Shown: piece by piece, positions 1-57,420 of the stretch
Position numbering within the stretch: the stretch's first letter is position 1
How the letters are laid out: each line of letters starts with the position of its first letter
From: an uncultured Bacillota bacterium
Lineage (GTDB): Bacteria > Bacillota_I > Bacilli_A > RFN20 > CAG-826
DNA length: 64,000 nucleotides
Assembly: GCA_949293555.1 (NCBI GenBank)
Contig: CASFDV010000003.1
Coordinates: forward strand, 7,614-71,613
Direction: 5' to 3'
Position numbers and translations under genes: made by a program
The notes under the pieces: model-generated
Databases searched by the model: none
The model's input: only the letters and a program-made list of their open reading frames with translations
Told to the model about the DNA's origin: nothing

Positions 1-116
1 TAAAGGATCGTCCACTCGCTCTCGTCGATCCCGAGGTGAGTGGAGTAGCGGTCGTATTCGCCATCGACGATGAGGGTCGCGATCGAGTAGCGCCTGATGT
101 ATTCGCTCAGTTCCAT
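1..116 (-). CDS. Partial CDS (N-terminus only, MELSEYIRRYSIATLIVDGEY...) running off the left edge; hypothetical protein
   Basis: ATG is at 114-116 on the minus strand, preceded by a strong RBS (TAAGGAGGACGTGC ATG). The frame stays open to the window edge. Confidence 0.5.
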   Translation of the reverse strand, partial: MELSEYIRRYSIATLIVDGEYDRYSTHLGIDESEWTIL

Positions 117-129
117 GCACGTCCTCCTT

Positions 130-169
130 AATCCGATTTCGGAATATTTATAAATCCGATTTCGGAATA
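130..169. promoter_or_regulatory. Two copies of the 17-bp element AATCCGATTTCGGAATA, each with a 5-2-5 palindrome TCCGA-TT-TCGGA, 23 bp apart, flanking TATTTATAAA; likely operator/promoter of the leftmost gene
   Basis: The repeats sit at 130-146 and 153-169. Each contains a perfect palindrome, and the A/T-rich spacer resembles a -10 box. Confidence 0.5.
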
Positions 170-252
170 AGTCAAATCGAATATGCGCTCCGTGGACGGG
201 GAAGTAGGAGGAAATCTTGGCAATATCTGTATATTGAAGCGCGTTTTGCAGA

Positions 253-981
253 CTATTCAGCGAGATAGATCGTCACTTTCTCATCGCGCTTCCTTTTCAG
301 ATATGCCTTCAAGAACGGGGAGAGATGGAAGGTCAGCGCCTTCTCTGGGCAAGAGGAAACGCAGGCCCCGCAGCGGATGCAGCGCGTCCCGTCGACCATT
401 CCTTTGTGGACCGCATGGAAATGGCAGGCTTTCTCGCAGGCCATGCAGCCAGTGCACCTTCCTATGGGGGCGACCTTGGCGCCGGCCCTCGCCCTCCACT
501 TCGGAAAGAACCAACGCCCGAACGTGTCCTTTTCCTTGGGGAGGACGAGAGGACCGTCCTTCCGGAACGCCCGGAGGATGGCCTCCGCTTCATTAAGAGG
601 CATCTCGTAGTCGTCATGATGGAGGTAGCTGTGGGGCGCGGGGAGATACATCGCACCAACGAGTGGGAGCGAGAGCTTTCTCGCCGCCTCTTCGATCGCG
701 TTCCCGTGCCAGATGCGCCCGAAGGTCAGGGCGATCGCGACCTTCCTTGCCTCCACGTTTTCAAGGAATCGGAAAGCTTCCTCGGGAAGCCGTTCCCCAT
801 GGACGGGCGCGAGGAAGAGGAGATTTTCGTAAACGGACGGGATCCCCGCCAGCCCGCATTCATAAAGAGGCCATCCGGACTTCTTCGCGAGGTGTTCCGC
901 GGCCTTCTTGGTGTTTCCTGTATACGAAAGATAGACGACCGCGTTCAATCCTCTTCCAGGTACGCCTTCATGATCCGGCAT
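253..981 (-). CDS. Flavodoxin-like domain fused to a 2x[4Fe-4S] ferredoxin domain
   Basis: The N-terminus has the VVYLSYTGNTKKAAEHLA flavodoxin signature. The C-terminus has two CxxCxxCxxxCP cluster motifs (CTGCMACEKAC, CIRCGACVSSCP). Confidence 0.7.
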   Translation of the reverse strand: MPDHEGVPGRGLNAVVYLSYTGNTKKAAEHLAKKSGWPLYECGLAGIPSVYENLLFLAPVHGERLPEEAFRFLENVEARKVAIALTFGRIWHGNAIEEAARKLSLPLVGAMYLPAPHSYLHHDDYEMPLNEAEAILRAFRKDGPLVLPKEKDTFGRWFFPKWRARAGAKVAPIGRCTGCMACEKACHFHAVHKGMVDGTRCIRCGACVSSCPEKALTFHLSPFLKAYLKRKRDEKVTIYLAE

Positions 982-2339
982 TCGGGGACCTCCTCGAGCG
1001 AGAAGCCTAGTTCTTCCTTGATCTCGGCGATCGCCTCCTCACGCGAGAGATTCCTTCCCTGGCTTGCGATCGCCATCTCCAGCGCGCTGAAGGGGATCAT
1101 CGTCGAGCGCATCTCATAGAAGCGGATGAACTGGGTATGCTCCTTGCAGCGCTCGATCCTGCAGGATGTGTGGAGGCCTTTCCTCATGCTTTCGGGCGGG
1201 CGGTAGCCGGCTTCCTTCTCCAGCATCTCCATCACCTTCCGCCAGTCGTAGGAGCCTCCCGCGGCCTCGTCGAGGTCGATCTGGACGAAGGAAGGCACTC
1301 TTCCCGTCCAGGAGGAGCGGCGGATCGCCCTTGTCAAAGGCTTCAGGAGGGAGGGGACCTCGTGGATCGCCTCCACGACGTGGGCGACGAGCTCGTTCCG
1401 ATAGCCGGCCATGTTCTTCAGGGGATTGTCCCCGTAGGCGAGCTGCTTCATGGTGAGGAGGGTGTGGAGCCCTCCGTTCCGGAGAGGGGGACGAAGAGTC
1501 AGGACCCTTCCGAGGTTATATAGCAGGAGGAAGACCTTGCTCTTCCAGATGCGGTAGGCGGACTTCGGCGCCATGTGGTTGAAGTAGAGCCCGAGGATCT
1601 GCGCCGGCTCGTTCCCGGCGAGGAAGTAGGGGACCCCTAGCTCGACGAGCTCCGGGTAGAAGAGGACGTAGGCGAGGGAGGGGCATGCGCAGACGTTCTC
1701 GGAAAGCGACATGAGCCTCCGGTATATCTTCCGGAGGTCCTCGTCCAGCATCTTCCGGGAAAGGAACTCCACTTTCGGGAAGATGCGCTTCGCCTCCTCG
1801 ATGCTCTCCTTCGCGCTCCTGGACATGTAGGGGATCTCCCACGTGAGGGCCAGCACCCGGAGGCCCATCTTCTTGGAGAGGAGGTAGAGGAGGTAGGTGC
1901 TGTCCTTCCCTCCCGTGTAGAAGAGAGCGACGTCGAAGCGGGACTTCTCCGCCTTCGGGATCTCATGGACAAGGGGGACGATGGAGCGGAGTTCCTTCGT
2001 CTCCTCCTTCATCTGGCAGATGGGGCAAAGCCCGCGCTCGTCGAACTCCAGTCCCGGGATCATAAAGTCGTTTGCCGCGCAATCCTTGCAAAAACGGGCT
2101 TCTTCAAGTGATTTCGGGATTTTCGGGTTGTCCTTTTCCTCGACGACGACCGTCCCGAGGAGCCTCTTGCCCAGAATCCGTTTTTCCTTCGCCGTCAGTT
2201 CCTTCGGGAGCGAGAGGAGGAGCTCCCGTTGCCTTTTTCCTAGGGGGATGTAGTTATGGAACAGGCTCCACTTGTTCCGGAGCCCGTAGTAGCGGACCCC
2301 TTTTTCCTCGGTCTTCCATCGGGACTTCAGTACGTGCAT
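945..2339 (-). CDS. PP-loop ATP pyrophosphatase, N-acetyl sugar amidotransferase-like
   Basis: An N-terminal CxxC...CxxC zinc ribbon (CKDCAAND...CPICQ) precedes the SGGKDS PP-loop (FYTGGKDSTYLL). The gene overlaps the downstream flavodoxin gene by 37 nt. Confidence 0.55.
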   Translation of the reverse strand: MHVLKSRWKTEEKGVRYYGLRNKWSLFHNYIPLGKRQRELLLSLPKELTAKEKRILGKRLLGTVVVEEKDNPKIPKSLEEARFCKDCAANDFMIPGLEFDERGLCPICQMKEETKELRSIVPLVHEIPKAEKSRFDVALFYTGGKDSTYLLYLLSKKMGLRVLALTWEIPYMSRSAKESIEEAKRIFPKVEFLSRKMLDEDLRKIYRRLMSLSENVCACPSLAYVLFYPELVELGVPYFLAGNEPAQILGLYFNHMAPKSAYRIWKSKVFLLLYNLGRVLTLRPPLRNGGLHTLLTMKQLAYGDNPLKNMAGYRNELVAHVVEAIHEVPSLLKPLTRAIRRSSWTGRVPSFVQIDLDEAAGGSYDWRKVMEMLEKEAGYRPPESMRKGLHTSCRIERCKEHTQFIRFYEMRSTMIPFSALEMAIASQGRNLSREEAIAEIKEELGFSLEEVPECRIMKAYLEED

Positions 2340-2412
2340 GGCTCATTCTAGCTTTCTCTCTTAAGGAAGTAGGAGAAGAAGCCCGCCAGAAGAATGGGTG
2401 AATTTCTACAAA

Positions 2413-2527
2413 CGCCAAATTACCGAATGAAATCGCGCCAAATAACCGAACAAGAGAACGCCAAATTGCCGAACAAACTAACGCCAAATCGCGGAATGAA
2501 ATTGCGCCAAATCCCCGAATGGACTAA
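2413..2527 (+). repeat. Five imperfect direct repeats (period 22-24 bp) with consensus CGCCAAAT-NN-CCGAA(T/C), directly upstream of an AAA-DUF4143 gene
   Basis: Copies start at 2413, 2436, 2459, 2483 and 2505; this is an iteron-like array. Confidence 0.75.
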
Positions 2528-2560
2528 TATCCCAATGGATTTGAGGGGATAACAAACTTT

Positions 2561-3838
2561 ATGGACGGATACAAAACCAGGATAGCGGACACCATTCTCA
2601 ACGATAAGCTGAAAACTCACGGGGCTGTCCTTATCGAGGGAGCGAAGTGGTGCGGGAAGACAACCACTGCGGAGCAAGCCGCCGGATCTTGCCTGTACAT
2701 GGATGATCCGGATCGAAGCCGGCAATACCTGTCCATGGCCAGTTTCGAACCGAGCAGGCTTTTAGAGGGGAATACTCCCCGCTTGATTGACGAATGGCAG
2801 TTGGCGCCTCGCCTTTGGGACGCTGTTCGCTTCGTGGTTGATCACCGCCGCGGGCTGGGGCAATTCATTCTAACGGGTTCTTCCGTGCCGCCCTCTTTCA
2901 GTGAGATCCATCATACGGGCACAGGCCGTTTTTCATGGATGCGCATGAGGCCGATGTCGCTATGGGAATCGTTGGAGTCGACAGGGGAAGTCAGCCTTCG
3001 TTCTTTGTTTGAAGGCTGTGGGCCTATAAGGGGTTCAAGTGAGCTGGACGGAGAGGGTCTTGCCCATCTGGTTTGCCGCGGCGGATGGCCGCTTAGCGTG
3101 GAGATGGAAGGCGAGTCTGCGCTTGAGCAGGCATTTAGCTATCGCGATGCCCTCGTGCGGTCCGACATCTCGCGATTTGACGGCGTTTCCCGTTCTCCAG
3201 AACGTGCAAGGCGTCTTCTTCGATCCTACGCCAGGAGCCAAGGCACGCAGGCATCCCTCTCCTCCATTGTCGAAGACGCCAGGAAAAGCGAGGGCGAATC
3301 CTTTGACGAAGGTACCGCTCGCTCTTACCTAAACGCTCTTGAGGGCGTTTTCGCCATCGAGGAGATGCCGGCTTGGAATCCGAACCTTCGCTCAAAGGCA
3401 GCGATACGCACGTCCAATACTAGATATTTCGTCGACCCATCCATTGCCGCGGCGTCTCTGGAACTAGGCCCAAGGGATCTTCTTGGCGACCTTCGGACCT
3501 TCGGCTTTCTTTTCGAGACCATGGCCGTCCGCGATCTGAGGGTCTACGCCGATTCCCTGGAAGGAAGCGTCTACCATTTCCGGGACAAAAGCGGATTGGA
3601 GTGCGACGCGGTCATTCATTTGCGAAGCGGGCGATACGGTCTTGTCGAAATCAAGCTGGGCGGCGACCCCTCCTTCGTAGAGGAAGGGGCGAAGAACCTC
3701 AATCTTCTTGCCTCGCGCATCGACACGACGCGCATGAAAGCCCCCTCGTTCCGGATGGTGCTCGTAGGAGTCGGGGCTTACGCCTACCAGCGTCCCGACG
3801 GGGTCTATGTCGTGCCGATCGGGTGCTTGAAGGACTGA
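2561..3838 (+). CDS. AAA-family ATPase with C-terminal DUF4143 domain
   Basis: Walker A motif GAKWCGKTTTA; length and C-terminal region are typical of the AAA_14/DUF4143 family. Confidence 0.7.
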   Translation: MDGYKTRIADTILNDKLKTHGAVLIEGAKWCGKTTTAEQAAGSCLYMDDPDRSRQYLSMASFEPSRLLEGNTPRLIDEWQLAPRLWDAVRFVVDHRRGLGQFILTGSSVPPSFSEIHHTGTGRFSWMRMRPMSLWESLESTGEVSLRSLFEGCGPIRGSSELDGEGLAHLVCRGGWPLSVEMEGESALEQAFSYRDALVRSDISRFDGVSRSPERARRLLRSYARSQGTQASLSSIVEDARKSEGESFDEGTARSYLNALEGVFAIEEMPAWNPNLRSKAAIRTSNTRYFVDPSIAAASLELGPRDLLGDLRTFGFLFETMAVRDLRVYADSLEGSVYHFRDKSGLECDAVIHLRSGRYGLVEIKLGGDPSFVEEGAKNLNLLASRIDTTRMKAPSFRMVLVGVGAYAYQRPDGVYVVPIGCLKD

Positions 3839-3978
3839 ATTCCGACTCGCCCTCGCCTTGCAAGGAATTCGCAGCGCTCTACTTCCCATTAGGCTTACCT
3901 GCTTTTCGAGAGCTTTCATTGCGGCAGGCAAGGAAAAAGGGCCGCCCTCCGGCGGCCCTGCCCCTTCCTTGCCTTTGG

Positions 3979-4959
3979 CTAGAAGGTCTTCTCGTATACC
4001 TTCTGGTCGTCCTCGAAGCGCACCTGGTAGGTGGTGGTCCCGTCGGGGTTCTTCGCAAGGGTGAGCCACCCCTCGATCTCTCGTCCGTTCCTCTTCTCCA
4101 CCTCGAAGGAGGCGCCCATGAGCCCGTCCTCGTCGGCGTAGAGGGTGATCTCGAACTCCTCGCCACCGACCTCCCTCTCGAGCCCGAGGGCGAGCTTCCC
4201 GTTCCGGAGGGTCTCGAACTCGTATTCCATCGACTCGACCTCGCGGCCGTTCTCGACGAGGGTGTACTCGTATTCGTTCTCGTTGTCCTCGAGGGACTGC
4301 TCGATCTCGACGTAGTTCCTGGCGTCCAGGGCGATCCTCAGCTCAAGCTCGGTCTCCCATTCGTCGCGTTCCTTCTCCTCGCTCCGCTCGCCGCGGACGG
4401 CGTACTCCACCCCGTCCCGGATGGCGATGCCCTCGATCCTCGTGGTCTTCTCCCACTCGTCATGCTCCTCCTCGATCTCCCGGACGGTTTCGTTCAGGTA
4501 GAGGGAGTAGGTCTCGCTCGTCCCGTCGATGTCGTTGATGGTGACGACCTGGAGGCTCTCGTAGCCTTCCCGGTCGCTCGGGAGGGTCTCGACGCTTCCG
4601 GGGGAGAAGCTGAGGAGCGATCCGAGGGAGTGGGCGGAGAGGAGGATCTCCTCCGCGAGGAGGTCCTTCTCCGTCGGGACGGCCTGGCTTTCCGAGGCGA
4701 TTTCGTCCCCAGGGGCGAGGTCCGGGGCCTTCAGGACTCCCGTGTGGAGGGATTCCGTCCCTCCGATCCCCCCGAGGAGGTCGAGGGAAAGGACGGCCTG
4801 GGCGAGGTAGCCCTTCTCCTCCTCGAGGACGAGCGTCCCGGCTCCGTCCCCCTGGGAGCCGCCCTGGCTCCCTTTGTCCGTTCCTGGGCTCGCGCATCCT
4901 GCGAGGATCCCGGCGGCGAGGAGCATCCCTGCCCCGAGGATGATGGCGTTCTTCTTCAT
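3979..4959 (-). CDS. Acidic lipoprotein, hypothetical
   Basis: Signal peptide with lipobox (ILAGC). The Glu-rich C-terminal domain is paralogous to the anti-sigma ectodomain at 11857-12879. Confidence 0.65.
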   Translation of the reverse strand: MKKNAIILGAGMLLAAGILAGCASPGTDKGSQGGSQGDGAGTLVLEEEKGYLAQAVLSLDLLGGIGGTESLHTGVLKAPDLAPGDEIASESQAVPTEKDLLAEEILLSAHSLGSLLSFSPGSVETLPSDREGYESLQVVTINDIDGTSETYSLYLNETVREIEEEHDEWEKTTRIEGIAIRDGVEYAVRGERSEEKERDEWETELELRIALDARNYVEIEQSLEDNENEYEYTLVENGREVESMEYEFETLRNGKLALGLEREVGGEEFEITLYADEDGLMGASFEVEKRNGREIEGWLTLAKNPDGTTTYQVRFEDDQKVYEKTF

Positions 4960-5142
4960 ATCGGTTTTTCTCCTTCCGAGGCTTTCTTGCCTCTTACGCC
5001 CACCAAACGGGGAAGGGAGGGGATTTATTACTTCTCTGCAAGAAATTTTCGTACGGGAAGCGATCCATCAAAGGTTGAATTCCCCAGAGCATGAAGAAAG
5101 GCGCCGGCCGGGGCCAGCGCCTTCTTGGGAAGAGGGTTCCGC

Positions 5143-7074
5143 CTAGCGGAGCGAGTAGGCGGCGAAGTAGCCGCCCCTGACCGCCTCGGCCACCTGGCCG
5201 ACCTTGACGCAGTCGCCGATGACCTGGGTGGTCGGGTACTTCTCGCAGATCGCGTCGACGAACTCGTTGTTCGGCTTGGTGCCGAAGGCGGCGATGACGA
5301 GGTCGGCCTCGAGCCTGATCTCGCCATCCTTCCCTTCCGCGACGACGCCGGACTTGGTGACTTCCTTGATGGTCGCGGAGGTGATGGCCTTCACGTGGTT
5401 GTCGCGGAGGCGGAACATGAGGGGGTTACGGTTGTCGAGGATCGCCTCGGGGCAAAGCTCCGGCTTCATCTCGACGATGGTGACCTCCTTCCCTTCCATC
5501 GCGAGCTCGAGGGCCATGTCGCAGCCGGAGATGCCTCCGCCGCAGACAACGACCTTCTTGCCGCGGATCTTCTCGGGATGGACGTGCGCGTCGCACACCT
5601 CGACCGCGTTCTCGATGCCCTTGATCTTGGGAAGGTAGGGCGAGGCGCCGGTCGCGAGGATGATGCGGTCGGCTTCCTTCAGTTCCGGAGAATCAGGGGT
5701 GATCGCCGTGTTCATTTTGAAGACCACGCCGGCCTTCTCGCACTGGAGGACCTCCCAGTCGATGAACTCGCGGAGCCTTTTCTTAAAAGAAGGCGCGGAA
5801 GCGGGGACGAACTGGCCGCCGAGGACGTTTGCCCGGTCGTAGAGGGTGACGTGATGCCCTTCCAGGGCGGCCACGCGCGCCGCCTCGAGCCCGCCGGGGC
5901 CGCCGCCGACGATCGCGACCTTGAGGGGCGTCTCGGCCTTGGTGATGCGGTACTCGCCCTCGGCGACCGCCTCGGCGTTGATCGCGCAGCCGATCTTCCG
6001 GTTCTGGTAGAGGCGCTTCACGCACACCTGGTTGCAGACGAGGCAGGGACGGACGTCCTCCCTCCTTCCTTCGAGAAGCTTGTTGGGTAAATCGGGGTCG
6101 GCGATCAGTGGGCGACCCATCATCACGAAATCGCACTTTCCTTCCTCGAGGGCCTTCTCGCCCGACTCGGGGGTGTGGTTCCCGGAGTTGAGGATGATGA
6201 CGTCGCAGGCCTTCTTGATCTCGTAGGCGTAGTCGACCATGCAGCCGTCGCCCTGATAGATGGAGGGGCAGATCCACTGCTTGTCCTCGTAGCAGCCCAC
6301 GTCGATGTCGAAGGCGTCGACGCCGAGGTCCTTCATGTAGTTGACGATGCGGATGGATTCCTCGAGGGTGCGCCCGCCCTTGAAGTCATGGTCGGCGGCC
6401 ATCCTCATGAGGATCGGGTAGTCGGGCCCGACCGCCGCCCTCATCGCCTGGTAGATTTCCTTGACGATGCGCATCCGGTTCTCGAAGGAGCCGCCGTACT
6501 CGTCGGTGCGCTTGTTCCAGGCCGGGGTCATGAACTGGTCGAGGATGTAGCCGCTATGGGCGTGGATCTCGATGGCGTCGGCCTCGGCGACGACCGCCCT
6601 CGCGGCGGCCCTCCCGAAGGCAGCGACGAGCTCGTGGATCTCCTCGAGGGTGAAGGCGCGGCAAAGCTTGTCGGGGAAGTAGAAGGAAGGGACTTCGCTT
6701 GCGCTCACCATCTGGGCGTCGGAGAAGGGGAAGGCGTTCCGCCCGAGCCCGCAGCCGATCTGGAGGCACGCCTTGGCGCCCTCGGAATGGATGGCCTCGA
6801 TGATGTAGGACCAGCCCTTCATCTGGAGGTCGGTGTCAGCGGTGGTGATGTAGTCGATCCATGGGTCGGTCTTGTTGGTGCAGTACTGGGCCTCGATGAG
6901 CACCATCCCGACGCCGCCCCTCGCCCTTCTCCGGTAGTACTCGATCTGGGCGGAGGAGGGGAAGCCGTCGTGGTTCTCCGAGAATGTCCCCATTGGGGAC
7001 ATGACGATGCGGTTCCTGAGGGAAAGGTTCTTGATCTTCCCGCGGGAGAGCAGCTTTTCGAAGTTCGATGCCAT
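5143..7074 (-). CDS. Old Yellow Enzyme-family NADH:flavin oxidoreductase fused to an FAD/NAD(P)-binding oxidoreductase (2,4-dienoyl-CoA reductase-like)
   Basis: An N-terminal TIM-barrel OYE region precedes a CxxC block and a GGGPGG Rossmann motif. Start is taken at MASNF, which has the RBS AAGGAGGAACACCAAAG ATG; the listed ORF has a 24-aa spurious N-terminal extension. Confidence 0.8.
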   Translation of the reverse strand: MASNFEKLLSRGKIKNLSLRNRIVMSPMGTFSENHDGFPSSAQIEYYRRRARGGVGMVLIEAQYCTNKTDPWIDYITTADTDLQMKGWSYIIEAIHSEGAKACLQIGCGLGRNAFPFSDAQMVSASEVPSFYFPDKLCRAFTLEEIHELVAAFGRAAARAVVAEADAIEIHAHSGYILDQFMTPAWNKRTDEYGGSFENRMRIVKEIYQAMRAAVGPDYPILMRMAADHDFKGGRTLEESIRIVNYMKDLGVDAFDIDVGCYEDKQWICPSIYQGDGCMVDYAYEIKKACDVIILNSGNHTPESGEKALEEGKCDFVMMGRPLIADPDLPNKLLEGRREDVRPCLVCNQVCVKRLYQNRKIGCAINAEAVAEGEYRITKAETPLKVAIVGGGPGGLEAARVAALEGHHVTLYDRANVLGGQFVPASAPSFKKRLREFIDWEVLQCEKAGVVFKMNTAITPDSPELKEADRIILATGASPYLPKIKGIENAVEVCDAHVHPEKIRGKKVVVCGGGISGCDMALELAMEGKEVTIVEMKPELCPEAILDNRNPLMFRLRDNHVKAITSATIKEVTKSGVVAEGKDGEIRLEADLVIAAFGTKPNNEFVDAICEKYPTTQVIGDCVKVGQVAEAVRGGYFAAYSLR

Positions 7075-53484: not shown

Positions 53485-54860
53485 CGATGACAGAGGATGG
53501 TCGCCTTTCCGTCTTTTCGTCCGTCCTCGAGGACATGGAGAGGGTGTACCTCCACGACCAGAGGCCCTGGATGATCGGCTATAGCGGGGGCAAGGACTCC
53601 TCTCTTTTGACGATGCTCGCCTTCGAGATGCTCCAGAAGATCCCGGAAGGCAAGCGTTGGAAACCGATATACGTGGTTTCCAGCGATACTCGCCTTGAGA
53701 ACCCGGTCGTCTCCCTCTACATGCATGCGTCCAACCGGAAGATCGGACGTTACGCCCATGAAAACAATCTCCCGGTCATCTCGGAAATCATCTATCCCAA
53801 GGACGAAGAGACGTTCTGGACCCTCGTGATCGGGAAAGGCTATCCGACCCCGGAGCCTCCGGGGTTCCGCTGGTGCACCGAGCGTTTGAAAATCAATCCG
53901 ATGAACCGTTTCGTCGACGGGATCATCCAGGAGCATGGCGAAGTCGTCATCCTCCTGGGAGTCCGCAAGGGCGAGTCCGGGACGAGGAAGAGGAGCATCG
54001 AGTCCCGCGAGATCGAGGGGCGGCTTCTCCAGCATCACGAGACTCTCCCCAAGGCGTGGGTATTCAATCCTCTCACGGAGGTCCCTAACGACCTTGTCTG
54101 GCCCTATCTCCTGAAAGGGGATGGAATCGCCCCTTGGGGGACCGACCTTAAGAAGCTTTACGCGATGTATCGCGGGGCCGACCTTTCCGAGGAGCAGTCC
54201 GTGATCGGGCAGGTCGACATCTCGAACATGCCGGTCACGGGGAACAGCCGCTTCGGGTGCTGGTGCTGCACCATCGTGAAGGAGGACAAGTCCCTCGCGA
54301 ACTTCATCGCGAAGGGCGCGAACGAACTCGCTCCTCTGAGGGATTTCCGGAACTGGCTCGTCTCGATCCGGCAGGACCCCGCCTACCGGGAGAAGCATCG
54401 GGCGAACGGGAAGGTCTACAGGAAATCGGACGGGGAAGTCGGGCTTGGCCCTTTCACCCTGGACGCGAGGGAGGAGATCCTGCGGAGGCTTCTCGCCCTT
54501 CAAAAGAGGACCGGCTTCTCGCTCATATCGGAAGGAGAGCTCCGCCTCATCGATCGCGCCTGGGAGGACGAGGGGGATTTGTCGCGCCGGCGCCTTGTGG
54601 ACGCCTACCGTGACGTCATGGGGAAGAAGCTTCCATGGGACGAGGAGAAGCGCGCCCTGATGGACGAGGATTTCCTCAGGGAGCTTGAGGATTTGTGCGA
54701 TAGGAACGGCCTTCCGTTCGAGGCCATCGGGAAGGTCCTCATGGCGGTCGAGAAGGGGAGGGTCGGGAAGACCAGGGATGCCCTCCGCAAGTCTGCGAAG
54801 AGAATTCTTTCCCAAGAGTATCTCCATCAGGACGCGCTGAGGGAGGGGGAGGAAGCATGA
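53481..54860 (+). CDS. dndC: DNA phosphorothioation protein DndC (PAPS-reductase-like PP-loop ATP pyrophosphatase)
   Basis: PP-loop motif MIGYSGGKDSS, conserved NSRFGCWCCT cysteine motif, about 460 aa. Directly followed by dndD and dndE. Confidence 0.8.
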   Translation: MTMTEDGRLSVFSSVLEDMERVYLHDQRPWMIGYSGGKDSSLLTMLAFEMLQKIPEGKRWKPIYVVSSDTRLENPVVSLYMHASNRKIGRYAHENNLPVISEIIYPKDEETFWTLVIGKGYPTPEPPGFRWCTERLKINPMNRFVDGIIQEHGEVVILLGVRKGESGTRKRSIESREIEGRLLQHHETLPKAWVFNPLTEVPNDLVWPYLLKGDGIAPWGTDLKKLYAMYRGADLSEEQSVIGQVDISNMPVTGNSRFGCWCCTIVKEDKSLANFIAKGANELAPLRDFRNWLVSIRQDPAYREKHRANGKVYRKSDGEVGLGPFTLDAREEILRRLLALQKRTGFSLISEGELRLIDRAWEDEGDLSRRRLVDAYRDVMGKKLPWDEEKRALMDEDFLRELEDLCDRNGLPFEAIGKVLMAVEKGRVGKTRDALRKSAKRILSQEYLHQDALREGEEA

Positions 54861-56953
54861 AGATTCTCGCCGCGGAAATCGAAAACTTCGGCCCCTACGT
54901 CGGGCGCACCCGCTTCGACCTTTCTCCCGAAGGGACCATCCGCAGGATTGTGCTTATGGGAGGGAAGAACGGAGCGGGCAAGACGACTTTCTTCGAGTCG
55001 CTCCGGCTTGCGCTTTACGGTCCGAAGGCGTTCGGCCTTGCCGTCAGGAACGCCAAGTACGGTAAGAAAGTCGCCTCCCTCGTCAACAAGCGCGTGCTCC
55101 GGGAAGGGAAGGCGCGGGCCTCGGTCGCCGTTTCCCTTCGCCTTGAGGACGGGAACCATGAGAACGGATCCTATCGGCTCGATCGTTCCTGGGAAATCGA
55201 GGGCAAGGACGTCAGGGAAACCCTCAAGGTGTCCTTCAAGCCGGATAACGGGGACGAGAGGCTCCTTGGCAGGGAAGAGGAACAGGACTTCGAGATGACG
55301 CTTGAGTCCCTCTTGCCCTTGTCGCTTTTCCCGTTCTATTTCTTCGACGGGGAGAAACTCACGGACTTCTTTCTGGACGGCAAGGGCTTCCGCGAGACCT
55401 TGATCGCGATGACCGGGCTGGAGAGCCTCGACATGCTCGTCTCGATCCTTGGCGACCTCGCGAAGAAGGAGGGGAGGGCGAAGGACGCCGGGAGGCGGTT
55501 CGAAAAGGCGGAGAAAACCTATCTTTCCCTTAAGTCGAAATGGGATGCCCTCCGCGAGGAACGGGATGCCCTGAAAGAGGAAATCGAGAAAAAGGAAGAG
55601 GATTTCCAGGAATTTCAGAAGGAATTCCTTAGAAAAGGAGGCCTTTCCGTGAAGGCAAGGCGCGCCCTTGAGAAAGAAATAGAGCATGAGACGGAAGAAA
55701 GGGAGAGGAAGCGCGTGGAGCTCAAGGCCTTTGCGAACACGCATCTCCCTCTCCTCATCATGGAACGACAGGTGCGGAAGGCGCTTGAGGGGGCCGATTC
55801 CTCCCGTTCCGCCTTCCTTGTCCGGGAGATCAAGAAGGCCGCGGAGGAGCGAGGGGTCCTCCCTCTTATTTCCGAGCAGCTCGGTCCCGAAGGACTCGAC
55901 GGGCTCCTTAGGTCCATCTTCGGGGAGGAGGCGCTCAAGGGGGAAGGCGCAGGCTTCTACCGCCCCTCGCCGGAAGAACTTTCTCGCATTCATGAGCAAT
56001 TGGCGGAGGCTAGGTCCGCCGACCTTGGCTATTTCAAGGCGATCGAGGAAGACATCTATGGCTCCATGTCGATGCAGCGGGGGATACGGGAAAGGCTCAA
56101 AGGAGTTTCCGAGGAAGGAGAGAGGGCGCTTGAGAAAGAGCGGAAGGAACTGGAGAAGTTCCGCTTCTCTGTCCTGAGGAAGATCAGGGAGAAAGAAGAT
56201 TCCCTGGAGGCGCTCCTTCCCGATTTCCTTAAGGCGGAGGCGGAATATCGCTCGGCTTCCAAGGAGAGGGACGACCGGCTGAGGGAAGAGTCCGCGCACA
56301 GCCTTGCCGCGAAGGCGCACCTTGTCCTCGCGGAGTTCGAACGCCATCTTTTCGCGAAGCAGGTGGATCGGCTGAAGGACTCCTTCCTCTCCATCTTCTC
56401 TTCGATCATCAACAAGGACGGCCTTGTCGACGGGCTTGAAGTCGATTCCATGCTCCGCGTCTACCCCGTTCTTTCCGAACAGGTATCCCTGGGGGAGATG
56501 GCGCGCCTCCGCGAGGAGCTGGGAGAAGCCGAGTTCGAAGAACGATACGGGGAGGCTGCCCTTTCCATGACCTATCTTGAGATGGATGAAGAACAGGTCC
56601 GGATGCCACTCAAGGTAAGCGGGATGTCCGCCGGGGAGAGGCAGGTGTATCTATTCGCTCTCTACGGGGCCCTTGCCACGATCGCCGACCACCGGATGCC
56701 CTTCCTCATCGATTTCCCGTTCGGCCGGGTCGATACCGTCCACCGCATGGGCATGGTGGACCATTTCTTCCTTTCCCTTCCCGGGCAGGTCGTCATCCTT
56801 TCGACGGACGAGGAGGTGCAAGGGGCGCTTCTGGAGGAGATGGACCCCTTCATCGCGAGGTCCTACACGATCGAGAGCAAGGGGGACGGGACTAGCCGCG
56901 TTCTCGAAGGCGTCTACTTCGGGAAGGAGGTTCCTTATGGGAAACAGGCTTAG
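54857..56953 (+). CDS. dndD: DNA sulfur modification protein DndD (SMC-like ATPase)
   Basis: Characteristic N-terminus MKILAAEIENFGPY...IVLMGGKNGAGKTTFFESLRLALYGP, long coiled-coil, C-terminal ABC signature/Walker B (GMSAGERQ, PFLIDFPF). ATGA overlap with dndC. Confidence 0.85.
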   Translation: MKILAAEIENFGPYVGRTRFDLSPEGTIRRIVLMGGKNGAGKTTFFESLRLALYGPKAFGLAVRNAKYGKKVASLVNKRVLREGKARASVAVSLRLEDGNHENGSYRLDRSWEIEGKDVRETLKVSFKPDNGDERLLGREEEQDFEMTLESLLPLSLFPFYFFDGEKLTDFFLDGKGFRETLIAMTGLESLDMLVSILGDLAKKEGRAKDAGRRFEKAEKTYLSLKSKWDALREERDALKEEIEKKEEDFQEFQKEFLRKGGLSVKARRALEKEIEHETEERERKRVELKAFANTHLPLLIMERQVRKALEGADSSRSAFLVREIKKAAEERGVLPLISEQLGPEGLDGLLRSIFGEEALKGEGAGFYRPSPEELSRIHEQLAEARSADLGYFKAIEEDIYGSMSMQRGIRERLKGVSEEGERALEKERKELEKFRFSVLRKIREKEDSLEALLPDFLKAEAEYRSASKERDDRLREESAHSLAAKAHLVLAEFERHLFAKQVDRLKDSFLSIFSSIINKDGLVDGLEVDSMLRVYPVLSEQVSLGEMARLREELGEAEFEERYGEAALSMTYLEMDEEQVRMPLKVSGMSAGERQVYLFALYGALATIADHRMPFLIDFPFGRVDTVHRMGMVDHFFLSLPGQVVILSTDEEVQGALLEEMDPFIARSYTIESKGDGTSRVLEGVYFGKEVPYGKQA

Positions 56954-57314
56954 GACGTCCCTTCATACGAAGAAGGTGTTCGACGAGGTGAGGAACATCA
57001 GCCGCCTCCAGCCGTTCGCTCTTTCGAAGATCGCCCTCGCCTTGTCCATTCGCATGGAAACCCCCTTGTCGGAGGAAGACTTCAAGACAGATAACGAGGG
57101 GCTTGAGCTGGCAAGGGAAACCGTATGCGGACCGTATGATTCCCTCTTTTCCATGGTCGTGTGCGAGGACGCTGGGAAGGCGATCGCGGACTCGGAAATC
57201 TTCTCCACCTATTTCAAGGCCCATATCGACCGGGGCGCGAAGGAACTGGAGAAGGAGTTCCGTTACGACAAGAGGCTTTTCCGTCGCCTCATCGGCCTGA
57301 AGGATTCGATCTAG
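56937..57314 (+). CDS. dndE: DNA sulfur modification protein DndE
   Basis: 125 aa, immediately downstream of dndD with a 17-nt overlap. RBS GGAAGGAGG. Sequence pattern ISRLQPFALSKIALALSI...FKAHIDRG is typical of DndE. Confidence 0.7.
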   Translation: MGNRLRTSLHTKKVFDEVRNISRLQPFALSKIALALSIRMETPLSEEDFKTDNEGLELARETVCGPYDSLFSMVVCEDAGKAIADSEIFSTYFKAHIDRGAKELEKEFRYDKRLFRRLIGLKDSI

Positions 57315-57381: not shown

Positions 57382-57420
57382 TCCAGAAAATCCGGAATGC
57401 AATTCCAGAAAATCCGGAAT
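57382..57420 (+). repeat. Two direct copies of TCCAGAAAATCCGGAAT (22-bp period) flanking a GGAATGCAATTCC palindrome
   Basis: Copies at 57382-57398 and 57404-57420, immediately after the dnd operon and before a truncated gene. Confidence 0.7.

Follow-up and report, generated by a model that had tools for sequence, protein, structure and literature searches.

A 23-bp repeat array upstream of an AAA_14 + DUF4143 (PDC-S01) gene, probably an operator for the gene's own product

The repeat array and the gene downstream

The DNA analyzed here, a stretch of 64,000 nucleotides from an uncultured Bacillota bacterium that will be referred to as the window, carries five head-to-tail direct repeats at positions 2413–2527, within a 221-bp divergent spacer. 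A sequence-only reading had proposed five repeats with a period of 22–24 bp. The five units are borne out, with starts at 2413, 2436, 2459, 2482, and 2505, and the period is exactly 23 bp throughout, as found by TRF (period 23, 4.8 copies, score 96) and by a repeat search (unit spacing 23, 23, 23). Each unit consists of the core CGCCAAAT-NN-CCGAA and eight further nucleotides that vary. The pattern CGCCAAATNNCCGAA is matched exactly by four of the five units and with one mismatch by unit 4 (CGCGGAA). From the end of the last unit (2527) to the ATG at 2561 there are 33 nt, close to the 30 bp or so that had been estimated, and the gene that follows is, as anticipated, of the AAA-DUF4143 type: Pfam identifies AAA_14 (PF13173, E 7e-14) and DUF4143 (PF13635, E 3.9e-32) in the ORF at 2561–3838. 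The features of the locus are as follows:

2413–2435, plus strand: repeat unit 1, CGCCAAATTACCGAATGAAATCG (in the register used for the family, G1 is position 2414)
2436–2458, plus strand: repeat unit 2, CGCCAAATAACCGAACAAGAGAA
2459–2481, plus strand: repeat unit 3, CGCCAAATTGCCGAACAAACTAA
2482–2504, plus strand: repeat unit 4, CGCCAAATCGCGGAATGAAATTG, with one mismatch, in box B
2505–2527, plus strand: repeat unit 5, CGCCAAATCCCCGAATGGACTAA, whose 14-bp core (2506–2519) lies between the putative -35 and -10 elements
2502–2530, plus strand: putative sigma-70-type promoter, TTGCGC (2502–2507), a 17-nt spacer, and TAATAT (2525–2530), assigned by eye by analogy with the Spirochaete type
2543–2549, plus strand: Shine-Dalgarno-like GAGGGGA, 11 nt before the ATG, read from the sequence
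2561–3838, plus strand: gene for a 425-aa AAA_14 + DUF4143 protein (PADLOC PDC-S01), from Pfam, PADLOC, and an AlphaFold2 model
3197–3430, plus strand: region coding for a predicted winged helix, residues 213–290
3308–3346, plus strand: region coding for the predicted recognition helix, residues 250–262, with residue 251 at 3311–3313, from the AlphaFold2 model

On the opposite side of the spacer lies an unannotated 464-aa ORF (945–2339, minus strand) that has no Pfam match and a weak, sub-threshold match to TIGR03573, a WbuX-type N-acetyl sugar amidotransferase. It is highly conserved (62–97% identity) in many Clostridia-type MAGs, where it is accompanied by a downstream flavodoxin/4Fe-4S protein. 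Homologues of the neighbouring genes, at about 62% identity, come from MAGs labelled as Clostridia, Oscillospiraceae, or Eubacteriales.

The PADLOC PDC-S01 profile PDLC04790 matches the array-associated protein over residues 1–423 (E 1.9e-61). No NCBIfam model matches it, and a sequence search of the PDB returned only a Walker-A-level match. A look-up of the exact protein sequence gave no record. An AlphaFold2 model based on 119 diverse relatives (pLDDT 96.5, pTM 0.95) predicts an AAA+/STAND-like ATPase core with lid (residues 1–207), a winged helix (213–290, with H1 at 213–225, H2 at 233–241, H3 at 250–262, and the wing extending to about 290), and a PD-(D/E)XK alpha/beta domain (293–425). 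The nearest folds found by Foldseek are NB-ARC/STAND proteins (NRC resistosomes, CED-4), the archaeal AAA+ protein SSO1545, Orc1/Cdc6 on origin DNA, DnaA, clamp loaders, and MalT, and the C-terminal part of the model resembles Card1/Cdn1 nucleases. In the 119 sequences the Walker A (G27/G32/K33), Walker B (D77/E78), and predicted nuclease (D325/E347/D349/K365) residues are invariant or nearly so, and T252 and Y256 of H3 are invariant even among homologues of about 30% identity.

DUF4143 is among the families of a PD-(D/E)XK survey (PMC3424549). Among defence systems and candidates, PDC-S01 ranks fourth in abundance across prokaryotes, and in rumen genomes it is the single defence locus encountered most often (PMC12988326, PMC13356809). 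It is a candidate from "guilt by embedding," a class for most of which, according to the literature, experimental validation is still pending; for PDC-S01 itself no validation, solved structure, tested function, or known ligand was found in the literature. Judged by sequence, the protein would be a candidate for an anti-phage role. A literature search on DUF4143, COG1373, PDC-S01, PF13635, and AAA_14 found no description of an upstream repeat array. The papers that mention the family treat it only as an uncharacterised, very abundant defence candidate.

Conservation of the array and extent of the cassette

The protein belongs to a family with thousands of relatives. Three homologues of about 70% identity in unrelated gene contexts (loci L002, L004, and L005) have a 23-bp array at the same position and with the same orientation, the units being GCCAAATCGACTA in the first two and GCCAAATTGCCGAA in the third. 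A homologue scan limited to one genome per species collected 80 loci of 58–68% identity, mostly from gut and rumen MAGs of Spirochaetes, Firmicutes, Bacteroidota, Lentisphaerae, Proteobacteria, Fibrobacter, Actinobacteria, and Mollicutes. Periodicity was assessed as self-similarity at lags of 15–34 in a stretch of 320 nt before each gene. A period of exactly 23 scores best in 71 of 82 non-redundant homologous loci (58–70% identity, at least eight phyla), and a clear upstream array is absent from the other 11 of these close homologues. The controls gave no period-23 signal (0/74 far-upstream segments, 0/83 and 0/83 coding segments), and TRF, which is independent of the lag test, reports a period of 23 or 46 in 65 of 81 loci. 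Arrays have two to seven units, most often three or four, and the strict 23-bp ruler holds in more than 100 loci. Among IMG/VR contigs, 23 is the best period in 23 of 26 loci, 17 of them above the score threshold.

The association extends to more distant relatives. Arrays with a 23-bp period are found upstream of homologues of 37–40% identity (L088, L089, L090, L093, L100) and of 30–33% identity in Actinomyces, Prosthecochloris, and Lentilactobacillus. In a clade of about 30% identity from soil, freshwater, and sediment metagenomes, 23 is the best period in 41 of 77 loci (coding controls 0/77), and the motif there is GGCGAAAyGGTAGyGTA. Homologues of 27–29% identity (Agrobacterium, Sphingomonas) show only a weak 22-bp periodicity. 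At L088 (1440–1500, upstream of a 37%-identical homologue), the last unit contains a -35 element, TTGCAA, and a TATAAT ends 6 nt before the ATG, so that the mRNA would have little or no leader.

Direct repeats with units about two helical turns long, adjacent to a gene for an AAA+ plus winged-helix protein whose Foldseek matches include origin-bound Orc1/Cdc6 and DnaA, are reminiscent of iterons for replication or partition, which would make the locus an integrated or cryptic replicon and the AAA+ protein an Orc1/DnaA-like initiator. This explanation is extremely improbable. Of 72,556 plasmid records no more than 13 contain a homologue, and of 50,697 phage records no more than 4. The homologues lie one at a time in chromosomes, among unrelated neighbours; array, promoter, and ORF are all that the conserved unit comprises; and the protein has a nuclease domain and no Rep, Par, or other such match in Pfam or NCBIfam.

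The limits of the conserved unit can be seen where cassettes occur in differing contexts. DNA similarity starts at the first repeat, within a few bases, and ends no more than about 10 nt from the stop codon; the clearest boundary pair, L073 and L087, is 92% identical from -109/-111 to +1288. The conserved unit is therefore the array, the promoter, and one ORF, and because similarity ends at the stop codon, this ORF encodes the only protein that travels with the array. Apart from L086, none of 71 loci has another copy of its own motif in the flanking 1.5 kb, whichever side or strand is considered; further exact copies in this check belong to the array of L085 itself, which is split by an assembly gap. 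In the window, CGCCAAATNNCCGAA has no further match on either strand with up to two mismatches.

Such sharp edges could also be those of a recombination or mobility site that moves the one-gene cassette, possibly by means of its own nuclease domain. Similarity that runs exactly from the first repeat to the stop codon would be expected of such an element, as would a protein 58–70% identical across phyla, and two loci point the same way: in L037 a duplicated paralogue array surrounds another cassette and an IS256-like fragment, and in L086 a second array lies just past the stop codon. The other end of the cassette, however, has neither an array nor an inverted copy, recombinases or transposases are not consistently linked, and the one strain of the window's species that lacks the gene, L132, shows a deletion, with the array and a decayed leader still in place, and not a clean empty site. 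A mobility site is thus very improbable. The narrower idea that the array is the terminal repeat of a mobile element or a transposon end was rejected, since the 71 loci have no second-end or inverted copy, with one tandem exception, and no linked recombinase.

Individual loci show how the cassettes vary. In L086 the second array has the same motif as the first and begins 19 nt after the stop codon (about +1297 to +1360 from the gene start), so that cassettes can sit in tandem with the array as their junction. In L037 a 40%-identical paralogue that adjoins the cassette has its own 23-bp array, which is present twice in the same orientation (992–1088 and 2835–2925, units TGACCCATATTTTCACTTAAAAT). 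The two copies flank the IS256-like transposase fragment and a complete cassette with its own, different array, an arrangement that suggests a rearrangement or an insertion within an array.

Strains of the window's own species also differ. L132 (ENA ERZ16268046, scaffold_1059) is 95% and 93% identical to window positions 1–2356 and 3931–5481, respectively. In between (positions 6413–6662 of the reverse complement, corresponding to window 2357–3930), the ATPase ORF is gone, and a three-unit array (GCCAAATGACCGAAC...) and a decayed leader are kept; the orphan units, GCCAAATGACCGAACGAAATTGC and variants, lie between the same flanking genes. Because array and decayed leader persist, the ORF must have been deleted in one lineage, where the array is left as an orphan. 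L132 was considered as a clean empty insertion site and rejected as such, and being a deletion remnant it gives no target-site information. Another strain, L001, is 97% identical to the window strain overall and has the cassette with small unit changes: its array (2718–2832) differs from that of the window mainly at the variable bases 8–9 and the box-B bases 10–11. Its units 1 and 4 are identical, which hints at conversion between units.

Recognition of the repeats

The consensus of units between loci is G-C-C-A-A-(A)-(T)-n-n-(C)-(C/G)-(G/A)-A-A-n-R-A-A-A-w-n-n-n, in which positions 3–5, 13, and 17 are almost invariant across phyla. Within arrays, units are 0.91 identical at positions 1–14 vs. 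0.73 at positions 15–23. Bases 10–12 are 0.93–0.99 identical within arrays vs. 0.39–0.49 between loci, and positions 20–23 have drifted inside arrays (0.62–0.70). Since the core is kept in every unit while the spacers drift, the arrays are not fresh products of slippage. This pattern points to selection on a 14-bp core in every unit, part of the core being locus-specific. It also provides a search signature for cassettes and their decayed remnants, namely at least two 23-bp units with GCCAA...AA.RAAA.

Since only the ORF travels with the array, covariation was tested with the ORF product. Residue 251, at the N-terminus of the predicted recognition helix H3, tracks bases 10–12 of the unit: Asp occurs with CCG in 22 of 28 loci, Glu with CGG or CCA in 15 of 18, and Lys with GGN in 11 of 14. 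Asp and Glu tend to contact cytosine, and Lys tends to contact guanine; the pairings fit this tendency. To limit phylogenetic inflation, 35 non-overlapping nearest-neighbour pairs of loci were compared. Residue 251 is changed in 11 of the 16 pairs that differ in bases 10–12 vs. one of the 19 that do not (Fisher p = 1e-4), and the two classes of pairs are nearly alike in overall identity (0.74 vs. 0.79). In a ranking of 244 variable columns, residue 251 comes first and residue 250 second, and nine of the top 20 columns fall in H2–H3, where 23 of the 244 are located (p = 1e-5). Spacer bases 21–23, used as a control, show no such covariation (p = 0.79 for residue 251).

Loci outside the sample largely follow the same pairings (Glu with CGGAA 2/2, Lys with GG 2/2, Thr with CCAAA 3/3, Asp with CCGAA 1/2). 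There are exceptions: L029 and L107 combine Asp with GGG or AGG, L083 combines Lys with TCC, and the protein of the window itself has Gly251 with CCGAA. Part of the signal could also reflect the shared ancestry of a tightly linked array and gene, despite the use of sister pairs. Nor does a winged-helix fold by itself prove DNA binding, given that in NB-ARC/STAND relatives the winged helix serves oligomerisation.

These patterns bear on earlier suggestions for the binder. Comparative support now exists for the AAA-DUF4143 protein, which had been named as one candidate, in the conservation of gene and array and in the covariation at the recognition helix, which together suggest that it reads the repeats. 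MarR, TetR, and PucR proteins, also named, are disfavoured, since the array accompanies the ATPase gene to unrelated contexts from which they are missing. Where an oligomerising regulator or a replication or partition protein had been expected on such repeats, the phased sites appear consistent with the first, and the scarcity of homologues in plasmid records argues against the second.

The array might alternatively work without the ATPase as binder, as a host-independent promoter enhancer (through phased A-tracts, UP-element-like DNA, or binding of a ubiquitous host protein) that boosts expression after transfer. The A-rich run of the unit (positions 16–19, RAAA) is indeed conserved across phyla, and in many loci the array is directly upstream of the -35 element. 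An enhancer of this kind would not explain why bases 6–12 are kept within arrays, differ between loci, and covary with residue 251. There is, moreover, no host factor common to the eight phyla, and the last unit is inside the promoter, not upstream of it, both in the window and in Spirochaete loci. We regard this as quite improbable.

Promoter geometry, self-regulation, and related systems

Distances between array and promoter are counted from the first base (G1) of the last unit. Firmicute-type loci have a TTG-type -35 element that begins at +19/20 and a TATAAT-like -10 element at +41/42, which places the last unit immediately before the -35 (core at about -53 to -40); about 20 of these loci have a perfect or near-consensus -10 (TATAAT or TATACT at +41/42), in most cases with a TTG-type -35 ahead of it. 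The -10 of Spirochaete loci is at +21/22, and the last unit there covers the -35 and the spacer. Bacteroidota loci have a TAnnTTTG element at +30/31, +52/53, or +74/76, distances that are quantised by about one unit. Across the three promoter types, then, the promoter is of the host's type and the array is constant. The putative promoter of the window agrees with the consensus at 8 of 12 positions, under the scan threshold of 9 of 12, and a sigma-70 consensus scan of 2200–4100 called no promoter. A structured RNA leader was considered and rejected, as no Rfam match was found up to E 1 and the predicted fold is less stable than that of shuffled sequences (z = +1.3); in most loci, moreover, the promoter is downstream of the array, which also argues against an RNA element.

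All of the evidence brought together here is comparative or predicted by computation, and from it we infer physical binding, its stoichiometry, and the sign of regulation. The array is probably the cognate operator or assembly array of the product of its own gene and regulates that gene. Self-regulation, most likely repression, is suggested because the array lies on or against the core promoter. For repression specifically, as the sign of this regulation, the chances are about even. The near-consensus Firmicute promoters would not need an activator and for this reason would fit repression better than activation, although the position of the last unit upstream of the -35 in Firmicute-type loci is also compatible with activation.

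A mechanism along these lines may be outlined. One protomer would occupy each 23-bp unit in a head-to-tail register. The recognition helix of its winged helix would read box B (unit bases 10–14, CCGAA in the window), and invariant parts of the protein would read the invariant GCCAA box (bases 1–5). A single winged helix is unlikely to span boxes about 9 bp apart, and a second DNA-contacting element, as in Orc1/Cdc6, is therefore likely. Contacts between neighbouring protomers would set the 23-bp spacing and lead to cooperative binding; that these contacts are fixed and occupancy cooperative is suggested by the invariant unit spacing. With the last unit on or against the core promoter (in the window, between -35 and -10), occupancy would most likely repress transcription of the gene. 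The outcome would be a self-contained negative-feedback cassette of array, promoter, and ORF, by which a potentially toxic nuclease would be held to a set level whatever the host.

The same binder could act on the array in another way. The array might serve mainly as an assembly or parking platform on which an oligomer of the ATPase-nuclease is nucleated or held inactive until it is freed or activated by a trigger, for instance phage DNA or a nucleotide signal. The strict ruler and the two to seven units suggest a defined multimer, the closest folds are those of oligomerising STAND/Orc-type NTPases, and the Walker A/B and D-ExK residues are conserved. Pure parking would not need the fixed phase of the array to the promoter that is kept in three promoter types, however, and a second site elsewhere was found neither in the window nor in the 1.5 kb around cassettes. 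As the main role of the array, this is unlikely. It overlaps with the operator explanation, since the binder is identical, and an assembly or parking role alongside the operator role is compatible with the data.

A more far-reaching proposal, which is rather improbable, would have PDC-S01 proteins be sequence-programmable, Orc/STAND-like DNA sensors that recognise 23-bp-phased arrays through a residue-251 code. The copy at their own promoter would be a brake or decoy, phased foreign DNA (plasmid iterons, phage origins) would free or assemble the nuclease, and the array might possibly also be an exchange junction.

The operator explanation has precedents among known systems. In plasmids with iterons and an autoregulated rep gene (P1 incC/repA, R6K), a winged-helix product binds repeats that overlap the promoter, resulting in cooperative autorepression. 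The array resembles these systems in having tandem repeats of about two turns immediately upstream of, and overlapping, the promoter of the gene, and with five units and a 23-bp period it agrees with the usual description of iterons as tandem repeats of about 17–22 bp some two helical turns apart. It departs from that description in its setting, which is not a plasmid or phage origin next to a Rep-family gene: the partner is an AAA_14/DUF4143 protein, an AAA+/STAND-like ATPase-nuclease without a Rep domain, the locus is chromosomal, the period is strictly 23 bp, and the array lacks a conserved AT-rich unwinding element or DnaA boxes. Orc1/Cdc6 with its ORB elements and DnaA with its boxes share with PDC-S01 an AAA+ module followed by an HTH or winged helix and recognition boxes by their own gene. 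Fold similarity to Orc1/Cdc6 (PDB 2qby, E 2.5e-4) and DnaA (1l8q, E 9e-4) is detected at low TM scores of about 0.25–0.28, and no Cdc6, Orc, or DnaA model of Pfam or NCBIfam matches the protein. Unlike these initiators, PDC-S01 ends in an additional PD-(D/E)XK domain; nothing points to an origin function, and its sites are evenly spaced direct repeats and not dyads that flank an unwinding element.

Other comparisons concern regulation and assembly. MalT (fold match 8bob) and other STAND factors are NTPases that multimerise in a nucleotide-dependent manner, which could lead to the cooperative filling of several direct repeats at a promoter; unlike PDC-S01, MalT has a C-terminal LuxR-type HTH and no nuclease domain and activates other operons, whereas the target of PDC-S01 is its own promoter and repression is more likely. 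The C proteins of restriction-modification systems, with their C-boxes, provide a functional parallel, a mobile defence cassette that carries its own operator and is expressed in a controlled manner in a new host, but C proteins are small, separate HTH dimers on palindromic boxes, whereas in PDC-S01 the effector is apparently itself the regulator and acts on two to seven direct repeats. In parC/ParR, tandem repeats upstream of the operon overlap the promoter and are both assembly site and operator; here there is no ParM or ParA partner, the cassettes are not plasmid-borne, and the fold of the binder is unrelated. By analogy, then, the array would functionally resemble autoregulatory iterons, parC, DnaA boxes, and MalT boxes, and differ from them in its partner protein, its chromosomal single-gene cassette, and its 23-bp ruler.

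An array that is apparently read by the PDC-S01 protein offers a concrete DNA ligand for biochemistry and cryo-EM, and the pairing of residue 251 with bases 10–12 is a testable amino-acid-to-base rule. A minimal cassette that regulates itself would explain how a nuclease gene is transferred between phyla. Should the array prove to have a role beyond that of an operator, immunity would be connected with STAND/Orc-like assembly on repeated DNA.

Two further sites in the window, at 130–169 and 57382–57420, had been taken for members of a dispersed family of binding sites for one protein. Neither has the GCCAA box or fits the family logo, and a CGGAA/CCGAA pentamer is all that they share with the array. 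A dispersed family in the window is not supported either: the motif occurs only at the array (up to two mismatches, both strands, relaxed patterns), with regular expressions derived from the family logo matching only at 2414–2506. The site at 130–169 comprises two copies of the near-palindrome AATCCGATTTCGGAAT, 23 bp apart, directly upstream of a minus-strand gene whose ATG is at 115–117 and which runs off the start of the window. The gene is complete in the sister contig L001, where it encodes a 148-aa MarR-family protein, and the palindromic pair is probably this regulator's own operator, unrelated to the array at 2413–2527. The site at 57382–57420 consists of two direct copies, with a period of 22, of TCCAGAAAATCCGGAAT, a motif unlike that of the array, in the tail-to-tail spacer between dndE and the gene for an ArsB/CitMHS-like permease fragment. 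At 54857–57314 the window carries dndD (698 aa, PADLOC DndD E 7e-99) followed by a dndE-like ORF (Pfam DndE E 9e-17). Both are part of a DNA phosphorothioation cluster that lies about 51 kb from the PDC-S01 cassette.
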